From positions 1 through 27,779 of the forward strand of contig JAGGSL010000140.1 of the NCBI GenBank assembly GCA_021159125.1: DNA of 27,779 nt, read 5' to 3'. Origin of the DNA: Thermoplasmata archaeon. GTDB lineage: Archaea; Thermoplasmatota; E2; UBA202; DSCA01. The notes beneath the pieces are model-generated. The model was given only the letters and a program-made list of their open reading frames with translations. It searched no databases and was not told the DNA's origin. The position numbers and the translations under genes were made by a program. Positions 155 to 17,170 of this stretch are shown piece after piece; the first letter of the stretch is position 1; every line of letters begins with the position of its first letter.

Positions 155-1549
155 ATGAAAGTTAAGAAAAGCGAGGACTTTGACGAGTGGTATAACGAAG
201 TCGTTGAGGAAGCAGATTTGTGCGACAAGAGATATCCTGTAAAGGGGATGAACATATGGAAACCATATGGGTGGGAAATACAGCAAAATATAGATTCCAT
301 AATAAGAGGCGAAATGAAAAAAACAGGGCATAAAGAAGTCTATTTTCCTCTTCTTGTCCCTGAAAGCCTATTCAAAAAGGAGGCAGACCATATCAAAGGG
401 TTTGGCTCCGAGGTATTCTGGGTTACCCATGCAGGGGAAAAGGAGTTAGAGGAGCGCCTTCTCCTCCGCCCGACATCTGAAACAGCATTGTACCATATCT
501 TCTCCCTCTGGATTCGCTCTCACGCCGATCTACCTCTAAAAACATTCCAGATAGTAAACACATTCCGCTATGAAACAAAAATGACAAAGGCATTCGTGAG
601 GGTAAGAGAAATACATTTCTTTGAAGCCCATACGTGTCATACCGATTTCAAAGATGCCGAAAAGCAGATATTGGAGGATGTAAAAATTGCAGGCAATTTT
701 TTTGATAAACTTGCAATACCTTATATAATAAGCAAGAGGCCTGACTGGGATAAATTTGCAGGCGCATATTATTCTCTTGGAATAGACGTTCTTATGCCCT
801 CCAAGAAGGTGCTTCAGGTCGCCTCCATACATCAGTACAGGGATAATTTTTCACGCCCTTTCGAAATAAAATATGAGGACGAGAGCGGAGAGCACAGATA
901 CTGCCATCAGACAACGTATGGCATGTCTGAGAGAGTGCTTGGTGCCATTGTGGGCATTTATGGGGATGATAAAGGGATTGCACTTCCCTCATTTATAGCC
1001 CCGATTCAGGCCGTCATTGTACCAATAATATTCAAAGGCAAGGAGGATATGGTGAAGAAAGAATGCGAAGCAGTAAAACATGAGTTGGAAGAAATGGGCG
1101 TAAGAACCCACTTGGACATGAGGGACAAAACACCTGGCAATAAATTCTACGACTGGGAATTAAAAGGAGTGCCTCTGCGGATAGAGATAGGCCCAAGAGA
1201 TGTGGAGAAGGGCGTTATTACGATTGCAGCAAGAGATGGCCTAAAAAAAGAGATAAAAAGAAGTGGTTTAGACAAAATAAAGCAGGAAATGTCTTCTTTT
1301 GACTCACGACTGTTTGAACAGGCAAAAAAGTTTCTCGACGAAAACATACATACTTTGGACTACATAGAAGAAAAAGAAGGCATAATAGAAATTCCGTGGT
1401 GCGGCAGGGAGGAATGCGGGCTGCAGATGGAAGAGGAGCTGGAAATGACATCCCTCGGCATTCCGTTTCCTGAAAAAGCATGCAATGGAAAATGTGCCAT
1501 ATGCGGAAACGAGGCAAAGCACTACCTGCGTCTTGCTAAGAGTTATTAA
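155..1549 (+). CDS. proS: Proline--tRNA ligase, archaeal/eukaryotic type
   Basis: N-terminal F.EWYNEVV, LRPTSET, motif 2 FRYETK...VREIHFFEAHT, QTTYGMSER, anticodon-binding GVPLRIEIGPRD, C-terminal Cys-rich Zn site (WCGREECG...CAICG). Confidence 0.97.
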   Translation: MKVKKSEDFDEWYNEVVEEADLCDKRYPVKGMNIWKPYGWEIQQNIDSIIRGEMKKTGHKEVYFPLLVPESLFKKEADHIKGFGSEVFWVTHAGEKELEERLLLRPTSETALYHIFSLWIRSHADLPLKTFQIVNTFRYETKMTKAFVRVREIHFFEAHTCHTDFKDAEKQILEDVKIAGNFFDKLAIPYIISKRPDWDKFAGAYYSLGIDVLMPSKKVLQVASIHQYRDNFSRPFEIKYEDESGEHRYCHQTTYGMSERVLGAIVGIYGDDKGIALPSFIAPIQAVIVPIIFKGKEDMVKKECEAVKHELEEMGVRTHLDMRDKTPGNKFYDWELKGVPLRIEIGPRDVEKGVITIAARDGLKKEIKRSGLDKIKQEMSSFDSRLFEQAKKFLDENIHTLDYIEEKEGIIEIPWCGREECGLQMEEELEMTSLGIPFPEKACNGKCAICGNEAKHYLRLAKSY

Positions 1550-12617: not shown

Positions 12618-13016
12618 ATGCAATTGAACAAGGGAATGCTCTCATTTCTATCCGGTCTTGGATTTACGGGTCTGGGCTTCTACATATGGTTTTTCACATT
12701 GTATTACTTCGACTGGAAAATAGGATGGATATTTGTATTTTCCGTAGCCACGGCAGTTCTCGGAGCAGTGGTGATATGGTGTATCTTTGTTGCTTTTTCC
12801 CTCATTGATACAGAAATACGTTTGAGTTCAACGGCAGGAGGCTTTATAGGCGGCATACTCAGCATGGCCGCGATCATACTCATGATATTGTCTTTCAGGA
12901 TAGGGGACTATAAATGGTATGAAGTGATTCATCCCATAGTATCGTTTTTCATGGCTGCCGGATGCACAACATTGCTAATATACCCATTGGAAGAGAAAGA
13001 GTCAAATAAATGGTAG
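12618..13016 (+). CDS. Hypothetical 4-TM membrane protein
   Basis: Four hydrophobic segments. Probable start MQLNKG at 12618 (TATA-like TTTATTAA at 12589-12596; ORF track 12597). Overlaps the trm56 start by 7 nt. Confidence 0.7.
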   Translation: MQLNKGMLSFLSGLGFTGLGFYIWFFTLYYFDWKIGWIFVFSVATAVLGAVVIWCIFVAFSLIDTEIRLSSTAGGFIGGILSMAAIILMILSFRIGDYKWYEVIHPIVSFFMAAGCTTLLIYPLEEKESNKW

Positions 13017-14032
13017 ACGTCACAGTTTTTAGATACGGCCATAGAATTGCAAGAGATAAACGCATCACGACCCATATTGCACTTGTTGCAAGGGCCTTCG
13101 GAGCAAAAAAAATAATCATAGACAATAGAGACGAAGGGATAGAGGAGGTTGTTGAAGATGTCAACAACAGATTTGGCGATGATTTTGAAATAGAAACGGG
13201 CGTAAACTGGAAAAAATTCATTAAAAACTGGGATGGGCTGATTGTGCACCTTACCATGTATGGGGAAAGTATAGCAGATGTTGCTGATGAAATTAAGAAA
13301 CATGATAAGATTCTTGCCATAGTTGGCTCAAAAAAAGTTCCCGGGGAATTTTATTCCATGGCTGATTTTAATGTCGCTGTTGGGAACCAGCCCCATTCTG
13401 AGGTTGCAGCCCTGGCACTTTTTATGCATTATATCACGGACGGGAAATGGATAGACCGCAAATTCTACGGCAAATTTCAGGTCATACCCCAAAAAAGAGG
13501 AAAGAGAGTTTTGGAAATGGATTACGTGAAAATGCTCAGGGATGAAGGCTGCTCTCAGGAAGTCATTGACCATTCGCTGAAGGTCCAGCGTCTTGCGATG
13601 AAAATAGCAGAGAGGATAAAACGCAACGGCATAAAGGTGGACATGAATACCGTTTATCTTGCATCTCTTTTCCATGACATCGGCAGATCCAAAACACATG
13701 GAATAAATCATATCGTTGAAGGAGCAAATATCGCCCGACGGCTCGGGCTGCCAGAGAAAGTTGTGAGGGCTATAGAACATCACGGAGGTGCAGGAATAGA
13801 TAAAGAAGATGCAGTCAAGCTCGGCCTGCCACCGAAGGATTACACTCCCCGAACCATAGAGGAGGAAATAGTTGCCCATGCAGACAATCTGACAGGCAAT
13901 GGCTACAGAAGCATCGACGAAGTAGTAAAAAAATTTGAGGAAAAGGCGGGCAAAAAGGCGGCAGAAAAAGTTAAGAATCTTCACAAAAAATTAAGTGAAT
14001 TGTGTGACATAGATGTGGGTGAGTTGATATGA
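13010..14032 (+). CDS. trm56: tRNA (cytidine(56)-2'-O)-methyltransferase aTrm56 fused to a C-terminal HDIG-type HD domain
   Basis: N-terminal SPOUT motifs RYGHRIARDKRITTHIALVARAFG, VHLTMYG, VGSKKVP, VGNQPHSEVAALALF. C-terminal HS..V, LFHDIGRS, H...GA, HHGGAG, EEIVAHADNL. Confidence 0.93.
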   Translation: MVDVTVFRYGHRIARDKRITTHIALVARAFGAKKIIIDNRDEGIEEVVEDVNNRFGDDFEIETGVNWKKFIKNWDGLIVHLTMYGESIADVADEIKKHDKILAIVGSKKVPGEFYSMADFNVAVGNQPHSEVAALALFMHYITDGKWIDRKFYGKFQVIPQKRGKRVLEMDYVKMLRDEGCSQEVIDHSLKVQRLAMKIAERIKRNGIKVDMNTVYLASLFHDIGRSKTHGINHIVEGANIARRLGLPEKVVRAIEHHGGAGIDKEDAVKLGLPPKDYTPRTIEEEIVAHADNLTGNGYRSIDEVVKKFEEKAGKKAAEKVKNLHKKLSELCDIDVGELI

Positions 14033-15053: not shown

Positions 15054-15145
15054 TTGAGCACCACGAAACGAAATGCAGGAACCCATAAATAAGGTTTTGG
15101 AAAGTTTTGATGAAAAAGTTATAAAGAATTTTGATATCCAAGAGC

Positions 15146-16138
15146 ATGACACTTGTGGTGTACTCCGATGAATTTGCACTCCATCGCAGCCCTGGTCATC
15201 CGGAAAGGGCGGAGAGAGCTGTTGAAGCCATGCGGTTTTTAGAGGGAATGCCGTTCTTTAATAAATTGCGTATAATAGAGCCGGTTATGATAGACGAAGA
15301 AAAAATTTTGAATGTCCATTCAAAAGAAATGATGGAACGGGTGAAAAACACGGTGGGATGGCTTGATCCCGATACATATACCACAGAAAATTCCTACAGA
15401 ATAGCAAAACTTGCTGCAGGTGGGCTTGTGAGGGCATGCGATGAAATTTTGAAGGGAAGAGAGGAAAATGCCTTTGCGATAATTCGTCCTCCCGGCCATC
15501 ATGCCACGAAAGACCGCTCAATGGGCTTCTGTTTATTCAACAATGCGGCGATTGCTGCAGATTTTATTGCCAGCCAGGGAAAAAAAGTGCTTATATTTGA
15601 CCATGATGTTCATCACGGCAATGGTACATGCGATATTTTTTATGACAGAAAAGATGTGCTTTATCAGTCAATACATCTTTCTCCCCACTACCCGGGCACA
15701 GGAATGATTGATGAAATAGGCAAAGGGGAAGGAAAAGGATTTACTGTAAATGCCCCCCTCTCAAGAGGCGTGGGAGATGAAGGAGTTGAAAAATTGCTTG
15801 ATGAGATTATGCTGCCGATAGCCGAACAATTTTCGCCGGACTTTATCATCATATCTGCAGGATTTGATTCCCATCATTCTGATGAGTTGGGAGGGCTCTC
15901 TCTGACAATAGACTTCTACGGGGAAATCATAAAAAAATTCAGTTCTGTTCAGAGTAAAATTGCATGCACACTTGAAGGAGGGTACATGCTCAGCGTTCTT
16001 GAAAAAGGGATTGCAAGCGAGGTGGCTGCTCTTGCTCACGAGCCGCTGCATTTTGAGGACAACTTTGAGGGTGGAAGGGATGCAGATGATGTTGTAATAA
16101 AATTAAAAGATCTGCTGAGCAGCTACTGGAATTTGTGA
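15146..16138 (+). CDS. Histone deacetylase-family Zn hydrolase (lysine deacetylase / acetylpolyamine amidohydrolase-like)
   Basis: [43 protein letters not shown]. Probable start MTLVVY at 15146, TTATAAA at 15119-15125. Confidence 0.93.
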
Positions 16139-16506
16139 TCAGATGACATCCTTACGGTTGTTTTTATTCCCCCTCGAATGTTAAACTCCCCTGTAACTTC
16201 AATAAACTTTGGGTTCAATAGGGCTTCCAAATCATTATATATCCTGTTTGTTGCCTCCTCATGGGTAATATGTCTGTTGCGGTATGAATTCAGATAGAGT
16301 TTGAGAGATTTGAGCTCCACTATGTATTTATCCGGCATATATTTTATCCTTATTACGGCAAAGTCAGGATACCCAGACTGGGGACACAAACAAGTGAATT
16401 CCGGGAATTCTATATTCACAATATAATCATTCTCCTGGCTGGGATTTTCCCACGTCTCAAGTTTTGCCTCTTCTATTGCTTTCTCACCATATTTCTTTTC
16501 TTCCAT
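16123..16506 (-). CDS. queF: NADPH-dependent 7-cyano-7-deazaguanine reductase, unimodular (type I) QueF
   Basis: [15 protein letters not shown] (Cys41, Asp48), QueF signature [10 protein letters not shown] (Glu64), THEE (His82-Glu83), FNIRGGIKT. Confidence 0.9.
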
Positions 16507-16609
16507 GTTCTGGCCCTGCTAATGTACTTTCGATATTTAATAATATTTATGAAGCGCATGCTCCAAATTTTATCCAACAATTTTTATAATGTGCTTCAAT
16601 AAAGATTGT

Positions 16610-17170
16610 GTGAAGATAAATAAAATTTCTGTGGTCCTATTTTCCGTCACAATTTTTTTCACTGCATCCATCTTTATTGCCCCTTTTCTGGTCGGAAAAG
16701 GCGAAGTAAAAAATCTTGACGGAAGCGCATGGAAAGTGGACTACAGGGAAAAATGGGACAGCATGCCGTTGTTTCCCCGCCTTATATATTACTTTGGGGA
16801 TATAAACTGCCACCAGAAGTATTATCGCTCTTATTACATCAACGAAAACCAGATGCCAGTATGCGCAAGAGATACGGGCATGTTTATAGGGCTGTCTTTC
16901 ATTTTCTTAATTTCAATTTTTGTTTCTGCAGGCAATACAATCAAAAACACTGTCATCAATTTCTTCTATCGTAAAATTAGGGATGCAAGAAAAATCTTAG
17001 TTCTTTTTTTTCTATTTCCAGTTCCTGCAGTTGCAGATGGGATTCTTCAGATGCTTACTCCCTATGAAAGCATAAATCCAATCAGGCTGGTAACCGGTCT
17101 TTTTATGGGCATGTCCATTGCTTTTTTTGTTTCCATATTATTTATAACAGACCCGCGCGCAGCATCATAA
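16610..17170 (+). CDS. DUF2085-like membrane protein
   Basis: NCHQ...RSY.IN.NQMPVCARDTG motif plus TM segments and PAVADG, RLVTGLFMG. Probable GTG start at 16610 (TTTATAAT at 16583-16590; ORF track 16589). Confidence 0.8.
   Translation: MKINKISVVLFSVTIFFTASIFIAPFLVGKGEVKNLDGSAWKVDYREKWDSMPLFPRLIYYFGDINCHQKYYRSYYINENQMPVCARDTGMFIGLSFIFLISIFVSAGNTIKNTVINFFYRKIRDARKILVLFFLFPVPAVADGILQMLTPYESINPIRLVTGLFMGMSIAFFVSILFITDPRAAS

Follow-up and report, generated by a model that had tools for sequence, protein, structure and literature searches.

We analyzed a 27,779-nucleotide stretch of the genome of a Thermoplasmata archaeon (contig JAGGSL010000140.1; hereafter the window) around a gene, queF, that a first-pass annotation made from the sequence alone had read as a bacterial-type QueF nitrile reductase in an archaeal genome. 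The results point to a working QueF which probably stands where a queuosine route leaves the archaeosine pathway at preQ0. The gene and the elements directly upstream of it are arranged as follows.

16123..16506, minus strand: queF, a 127-residue open reading frame (ORF) whose 3' end overlaps a convergent deacetylase gene by 16 nt
16517..16525, minus strand: ACATTAGCA, a short element downstream of the TATA box and ahead of the queF ATG, found when upstream sequences were lined up at the ATG
16534..16540, minus strand: TTAAATA, resembling an archaeal TATA box and situated 27 nt before the queF ATG

The identity of the ORF was examined with family models and by alignment to solved structures. 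Its product passed the NCBIfam equivalog for preQ(1) synthase, TIGR03139, with 157.7 bits for a cut-off of 86.9, and matched the Pfam QueF family PF14489 at 1.5e-33 (115.3 bits, cut-off 27.3). The nearest solved structures were the B. subtilis QueF entries 4f8b, 5udg and 4fgc (1e-28 to 2e-27, 4f8b at 1e-28). In the structure alignment Cys41 corresponds to B. subtilis Cys55, the catalytic, thioimide-forming cysteine replaced by Ala in the mutant structure 4fgc, and Asp48 to the conserved Asp in PDF (B. subtilis Asp62). His82-Glu83 aligns with the HE of 4f8b (His96/Glu97), which is HQ in entry 5udg. QueF enzymes carry a specific NADPH motif, E(S/L)K(S/A)hK(L/Y)(Y/F/W). Residues 64-71 of the window protein, ELKSLKLY, align with ESKSLKLY of B. 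subtilis QueF, and the motif is kept in 21 queF loci from across the order to which the source genome belongs. The role of this motif in NADPH binding has been described (PMC5699537). The protein is also 62-70% identical to QueFs from Aquificota, Nitrospirae, Thermodesulfobacteriota and Campylobacterales, while its nearest named homologues come from metagenome-assembled genomes (MAGs) deposited as 'Thermoplasmata archaeon', where the NCBI label is already QueF. By sequence, then, the ORF is a real, canonical unimodular QueF, and the call first made from Cys41/Asp48, ELKSLKLY and HE holds. In itself the gene is ordinary and automatic annotation names it correctly.

Profile searches of the whole source genome with family models identified the two archaeosine enzymes TgtA (TIGR00432, 564 bits) and ArcS (NF040592, 521 bits), which indicates that archaeosine synthesis is intact and that no QueF-Like (QueF-L) enzyme is needed. 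The genes for preQ0 synthesis were also found: a queD-queC-queE cluster on contig C24, in which QueC scored 224 bits on TIGR00364 (cut-off 150) and the best QueD and QueE models remained under their equivalog cut-offs yet gave clear family matches, and a GTP cyclohydrolase IB (GCH-IB)/MptA (PF02649, 251 bits). The only match to a FolE-type GCH-I in the source genome was QueF itself, and a weak one. QueH was present with 208 bits, and the family-model search of the source genome gave no match for QueG. Two late genes were incomplete or missing: queA is represented only by the first 130 N-terminal residues, running off the end of contig C7, and a bacterial-type tgt was not found by the family-model search of this 93%-complete assembly. 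As queA and tgt are adjacent in relatives, the gene upstream of the queA fragment was looked up in other assemblies. Five independent contigs from other samples are ~99% identical to the end of C7 over a common 1.8 kb and then run on into queA and tgt, which indicates that the lack of tgt in the source assembly is an assembly gap. In these same-species contigs queA and tgt overlap by 8 nt and lie between the genes for aRF1 and OMP decarboxylase. QueA is 339-344 residues long, the 344-residue copy that was scanned scoring 395 bits on NF001140 (cut-off 324) and 361 on TIGR00113 (cut-off 267), and Tgt, of 341 residues, scores 362 bits on TIGR00430 (cut-off 306.75). This Tgt contains DSGGFQ, GGLCIGE (a Leu231-type pocket) and a CxCxxC...H zinc site, where TgtA of the source genome has GGVVP. 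The use of preQ1 or preQ0 is told apart by Leu231/Ala232 in bacterial TGT and Val197/Val198 in arcTGT, and the bacterial-type tRNA-guanine(34) transglycosylase is regarded as the signature gene of the queuosine pathway (PMC5699537). The wider genome search proposed with the first-pass annotation thus found queH, queD, queC, queE, arcS and part of queA in the assembly and full-length queA and bacterial-type tgt in same-species contigs, with neither queG nor DpdA. Judged from these gene identities, the de novo queuosine gene set is complete in the species and branches from the archaeosine pathway at preQ0.

We then determined how widely these genes are distributed in the class, represented by 197 species genomes. 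The order comprises three families (f1, f2 and f3), 14 genera and 38 species genomes besides the source genome, and the rest of the class 158. Bacterial-type Tgt was counted at E<=1e-45.

QueF: 35 of 38 genomes of the order; 1 of 158 in the rest of the class, that one a match below the cut-off in a 4%-contaminated MAG
QueA: 33 of 38 genomes of the order; 1 of 158 in the rest of the class
QueH: 34 of 38 genomes of the order; 0 of 158 in the rest of the class
Bacterial-type Tgt: 33 of 38 genomes of the order, plus one fragment at a contig end

All four late genes (queF, tgt, queA and queH) occur together in about 27 of the 38 genomes of the order, the gaps falling in MAGs that are 60-97% complete. 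One genome of the order (G036; 87% complete, 4% contaminated) carries two full queA-tgt pairs, on contigs C63 and C98, which may reflect a strain mixture and not a duplication. The sister family f4 presents another pattern. A bacterial-type Tgt of about 400 residues was found in 33 of its 108 genomes with 450-480 bits, but QueF was present in 1, QueA in 1 and QueH in none of the 108. In the single f4 locus examined, L011 (G039:C13:36627-40796), tgt (locus positions 1486-2679) is divergent to a gene for a queuosine-precursor transporter of the YhhQ type (PF02592, COG1738), and the pocket of this Tgt reads GG-SLGK instead of GGL(A/C)(V/I)GE. The f4 enzyme may work in salvage only or on an altered substrate, and may then be a more novel lead than the queF of the window.

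Taken together, these observations suggest the following scheme. Synthesis of preQ0 would proceed de novo via GCH-IB/MptA, QueD, QueE and QueC up to a branch point, from which TgtA would insert preQ0 into tRNA position 15 for conversion to archaeosine by ArcS. On the other branch QueF would reduce part of the free preQ0 pool to preQ1 with NADPH, a four-electron step, through a thioimide on Cys41. The bacterial-type Tgt would then exchange preQ1 into the wobble position G34 of tRNAs with GUN anticodons, QueA would produce epoxyqueuosine and QueH would reduce it to queuosine. Gene identities, conservation of catalytic residues, completeness of the set in the species and retention across the order are direct observations. 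The activity of the enzymes, position 34 as the target and the occurrence of queuosine in tRNA are predictions from these sequences. On this evidence we consider it likely that the window encodes a working QueF which acts as the branch point from preQ0 to a Tgt/QueA/QueH queuosine route beside archaeosine. Of the roles first envisaged for preQ1 in this lineage, a queuosine-type tRNA modification is the one that the presence of queD, queC, queE, the GCH-IB gene, queH and the queA fragment in the assembly, and of queA-tgt in same-species contigs, supports.

Four points weigh against this interpretation. For tgt and the larger part of queA, the only source is near-identical contigs that come from other samples. 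With 341 residues the Tgt is short, and it has Cys/Ile at the positions of Z. mobilis Ala232/Val233, so that its substrate and target position can only be predicted. In favor of the scheme, the assembly has genes for two putative substrates with U33-G34-U35, tRNA-Asn(GUU) and tRNA-Tyr(GUA), the latter interrupted by an intron, but those for tRNA-Asp and tRNA-His were not found among the roughly 27 tRNA genes detected in the 93%-complete assembly. Finally, the literature searched holds no biochemical or nucleoside data on queuosine for this lineage or for any archaeon. With regard to tRNA detection, positions 781-886 (minus strand) of contig C155 of the source genome are reported by ARAGORN without its intron mode as a 95-nt tRNA-His(atg) and with it as tRNA-Tyr(GUA) whose 12-nt intron follows position 37.

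The alternative that survives best retains QueF as a preQ1-forming enzyme and Tgt, QueA and QueH as real enzymes, but places product or target elsewhere than in bacterial queuosine-34. For example, the product could be a derivative of queuosine, the modified tRNA position could differ, or the route could, under certain conditions, stop at preQ1 or epoxyqueuosine. It draws on a Tgt that is shorter than the bacterial enzymes, with a Cys-Ile variant of the Ala232-Val233 pocket, and on family f4, in which a third of the genomes (33 of 108) have Tgt without queF, queA or queH and the single locus examined, in G039, has a further altered pocket, which shows flexible use of the enzyme in the class. 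However, the scores of Tgt, QueA and QueH lie above their curated cut-offs, in part by a wide margin, queA and tgt are neighbours in relatives and share 8 nt in the same-species contigs, and the four late genes are found together in most genomes of the order. We therefore regard an altered product or target as unlikely.

A second alternative is that preQ1 serves to modify DNA (dPreQ1) as a protection against restriction, as in Halovirus HVTV-1 and some phages; dPreQ1 has indeed been found in an archaeal virus carrying a QueF-type gene (PMC6884629). Against this, PF01702 matches only TgtA and ArcS in this genome (93% complete) and no DpdA, and the same-species Tgt scores just 21 bits on the DpdA model (cut-off 200) but 362 on the G34 Tgt model. 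Moreover, queF lies amid housekeeping and translation genes and not in a defence island or provirus, and no role in DNA modification is known for QueA or QueH. A DpdA-type route was accordingly rejected, and we judge DNA modification to be very unlikely.

Still less probable is that the window protein is a QueF-L amidinotransferase converting preQ0-tRNA to archaeosine. The T-fold is common to both, QueF-L being the form in which archaea are known to use it (PMC5485725), and the window protein does match the QueF-L structure of P. calidifontis, 5jyx, but weakly, with 33 bits compared with 103 bits for QueF 4f8b. Its full NADPH motif, ELKSLKLY, is missing from QueF-L, its score lies above the equivalog cut-off for preQ1 synthase, and ArcS (521 bits) already covers archaeosine in this genome. 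An identity as QueF-L was thus rejected, and the separation from QueF-L drawn at first from the motif is now borne out by score as well.

The last alternative would make queF a contaminant from bacteria or the product of a chimeric assembly of the MAG. In its favor stands the 62-70% identity to bacterial QueFs given above. The source genome (1.29 Mb in 164 contigs, 93.4% complete) has an estimated contamination of 0.19%, and an identical QueF protein was found on at least 23 contigs. Six of these contigs, from six different samples, have the gene order of the window, archaeal neighbours included, at ~99% identity over 8-10 kb, because of which contamination and chimerism are excluded. The contig is thus validated by independent assemblies rather than by the read coverage first proposed. 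The same conclusion follows from synteny across the family, from the presence of queF in nearly the whole order and from another lineage of the phylum, in which a closed genome carries queF, tgt and queA.

The preferred assignment, a genuine archaeal queF, also agrees with the surroundings of the gene. Its immediate neighbours in the window are the following.

15131..16138, plus strand: histone-deacetylase-family protein, the convergent neighbour of queF (Pfam PF00850, 280 bits)
16589..17170, plus strand: DUF2085 membrane protein, the divergent neighbour (Pfam PF09858), with which queF has an 82-bp intergenic region in common

The TTAAATA element read at first sight as an archaeal TATA box was recovered at its place before the ATG, and TTAAATA or TTATATA occurs 21-39 nt upstream of queF in all ten family f1 loci. 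It is a candidate for the queF promoter, and the 27-nt spacing to the ATG would imply a very short leader or a leaderless mRNA. The ACATTAGCA element has counterparts in the five nearest relatives (L017, L018, L053, L034 and L038), which read CCATTAGCA or nearly so, with CATATTAGCA in L038. It may mark the region of transcription start, but its conservation is weak evidence, as it may merely mirror close kinship. The arrangement of the deacetylase gene and queF is also found in L017, L018, L034-L038, L051 and L053 and in the six independent assemblies, where it anchors the synteny across family f1; the neighbourhood of deacetylase and DUF2085 genes is retained in this family. The flanks of the window are archaeal, with genes for aIF5A, an aTrm56-HD fusion, PdxT, the deacetylase-family protein, DUF2085, HycI, ThiS/ThiF and a short SHMT paralogue. 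The fusion (13010-14032, plus strand) is one ORF of 340 residues, with aTrm56, a tRNA ribose 2'-O-methyltransferase, followed by an HD phosphohydrolase domain at the C-terminus, and is kept in same-family relatives. No other que gene was present among the ten annotated neighbour ORFs of the window, as the first-pass annotation had stated, and the family searches of the source genome placed all other que matches on other contigs. In the two family f2 loci examined, queF is instead the last ORF of an rpS6e-aIF2gamma-PIN(PIN_9)-queF string (L041, 2989-5343; L044, 952-3360), starting at or within 3 nt of the end of the PIN gene, so that the two ORFs abut or overlap. A bacterial-type tRNA-modification gene is here placed inside a core archaeal translation gene cluster. 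Within the order queF is thus thoroughly integrated and vertically inherited.

QueF was also searched for beyond the order. In a sample of 401 genomes of the phylum, 22 genomes outside the order matched the QueF model, which matched none of four archaeal control genomes; a contig scan for QueF returned seven loci, two of them from Thermoplasmata. By motif and tree the phylum matches form three groups: (a) a few canonical-looking QueFs (L054, L055 and, from family f3, L047), (b) a QueF clade of good support that has ELKSLKxY and HE and to which Aciduliprofundum boonei T469 belongs, and (c) a divergent QueF-family clade with ESKSVRDYL and Gln in place of His. The last group (L064-L073, from G305, G215, G351, G263, G233, G205, G225, G268, G330 and G339) has a support of 100/100 and comes from larger genomes; its members keep the Cys, have the motif ES/GK(S/A)(V/L/I)RDYL and have exchanged the catalytic His for Gln (WQEY). 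One of these genomes, G215, still has bacterial-type Tgt and QueA. Among five genomes sampled from the three groups, Tgt exceeded its cut-off in four and QueA was found in all five; the Tgt match of G216 is truncated and falls just below the cut-off (288.5 bits, cut-off 306.75). The closed genome of the cultured A. boonei T469 (G244, locus L062) encodes QueF (ADD08412.1 / WP_008082253.1; the former, P0241, is contained in the G244 ORF), a bacterial-type Tgt of 465 bits and a QueA of 406 bits.

Two QueF trees were calculated, a quick one of 166 rows and a careful one of 74 rows, from an alignment of 129 columns. The trees are not rootable, and their bacterial rows are best hits to archaeal queries. 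L048 (from G072) was left out of the careful tree on account of its very long branch, a score below the cut-off and a genome contaminated at 4%. In both trees the f1 and f2 QueFs fall in one supported crown clade (97/94 in the careful tree), which also holds a bacterial clade (96/95) comprising all the named QueFs of Aquificota, Nitrospirae, Thermodesulfobacteriota and Campylobacterales. The other archaeal QueFs branch outside this crown and Chloroflexi further out. An approximately unbiased (AU) test did not reject a single clade for the f1 and f2 QueFs (p=0.297), a result that is no proof of monophyly. Because the bacterial rows are best hits to archaeal queries and only 129 columns were available, the trees name neither a donor nor a direction of transfer. 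A bacterial origin of queF is plausible from its distribution, widespread in the bacterial controls and limited to one order in this class. Of the initial description of the gene as horizontally acquired and domesticated, domestication is therefore backed by synteny and the TATA box, and acquisition from bacteria is made plausible by distribution, the tree giving neither donor nor direction. Conversely, the several QueF clades in the phylum and the position of the Aquificota/Nitrospirae/Thermodesulfobacteriota/Campylobacterales clade among archaeal QueFs suggest that queF may have passed from archaea to bacteria. In its boldest form the argument would be that a whole order of uncultured, mostly hydrothermal and sediment Thermoplasmata makes both modifications, archaeosine (G15) and queuosine (G34), de novo out of a single preQ0 pool, QueF standing at the branch, that QueF and the late genes are old in the phylum, and that some thermophilic bacteria obtained their queF from archaea. 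We hold this combined proposal to be unlikely.

Reviews, and a 2026 paper on the QueC family, assign queuosine to Bacteria and Eukarya and archaeosine to Archaea. To the surprise of its authors, a 2021 study (Castelle et al., Front Microbiol, PMC8204110) found the bacterial queuosine pathway, complete or in part, in 34 archaeal genomes. Twelve of these belong to DPANN and some to Methanosarcinales, and the QueA, QueH-like and Tgt genes often lie together. The main text of that paper and the part of its supplements available to us do not mention QueF, and Thermoplasmata appear in the same material only in an unrelated introduction passage and one supplement column header. The literature searched contained no paper substantively linking queuosine to Thermoplasmatota or Aciduliprofundum. 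The gene is accordingly less unusual than the first-pass annotation took it to be: archaeal queuosine genes are already published, and QueFs are common in the order, named by NCBI and also present in other lineages of the phylum such as Aciduliprofundum. What is described here is a new host lineage for a phenomenon on record and no new kind of system. A complete de novo queuosine set beside TgtA and ArcS nevertheless raises the questions of how a single supply of preQ0 is divided between two tRNA modifications and which part queuosine at the wobble base might play in archaeal translation. A. boonei, cultured and with queF, tgt and queA in a closed genome, offers a tractable organism in which to ask whether any archaeon makes queuosine.

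Comparison with known systems places the window QueF closest to the bacterial unimodular (YkvM-type) enzymes such as that of B. subtilis (4F8B, 4FGC and 5UDG), with which it has in common the fold family, the Cys, Asp and His-Glu residues and the NADPH motif. Its N-terminus is shorter than that of B. subtilis QueF and its length class is that of the ~127-residue Aquificota and Nitrospirae QueFs. Unlike these enzymes, it resides in an archaeon that is also equipped for archaeosine, behind a putative archaeal TATA promoter, and in the two loci examined of the sister family f2 the gene belongs to a ribosomal-protein/aIF2gamma gene string. The A. boonei T469 QueF, from the same phylum, shares ELKSLKxY and HE and is likewise accompanied by bacterial-type Tgt and QueA, but it is only ~45% identical, in a separate well-supported clade, and may represent a separate acquisition or an old divergence. 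The QueF-L of Crenarchaeota (5JYX/5K0P; PMC5485725) is a T-fold homologue that, like QueF, uses a catalytic Cys on the preQ0 nitrile; in contrast to the window QueF with its NADPH motif, it has no NADPH site and acts on preQ0-tRNA. The archaeal queuosine genes of Castelle et al. include the same bacterial-type QueA, QueH and Tgt. The set studied here differs from that report in being de novo, with QueF and the genes for preQ0, and in its conservation throughout one order of Thermoplasmata. At the level of the pathway, the nearest counterpart is the bacterial de novo route with QueH, as found in Thermotoga maritima and Lactococcus lactis; of the control genomes, these two are matched by the QueH model. 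The genes are the same (GCH-I type B, QueD, QueE, QueC, QueF, Tgt, QueA and QueH) and the adjacency of queA and tgt is common to both. The archaeal que genes differ in being scattered instead of forming a queCDEF operon, and the Rfam search of the window gave zero matches, hence no preQ1 riboswitch. Unlike its bacterial counterpart, the archaeal set would run parallel to TgtA and ArcS from the same preQ0 pool.

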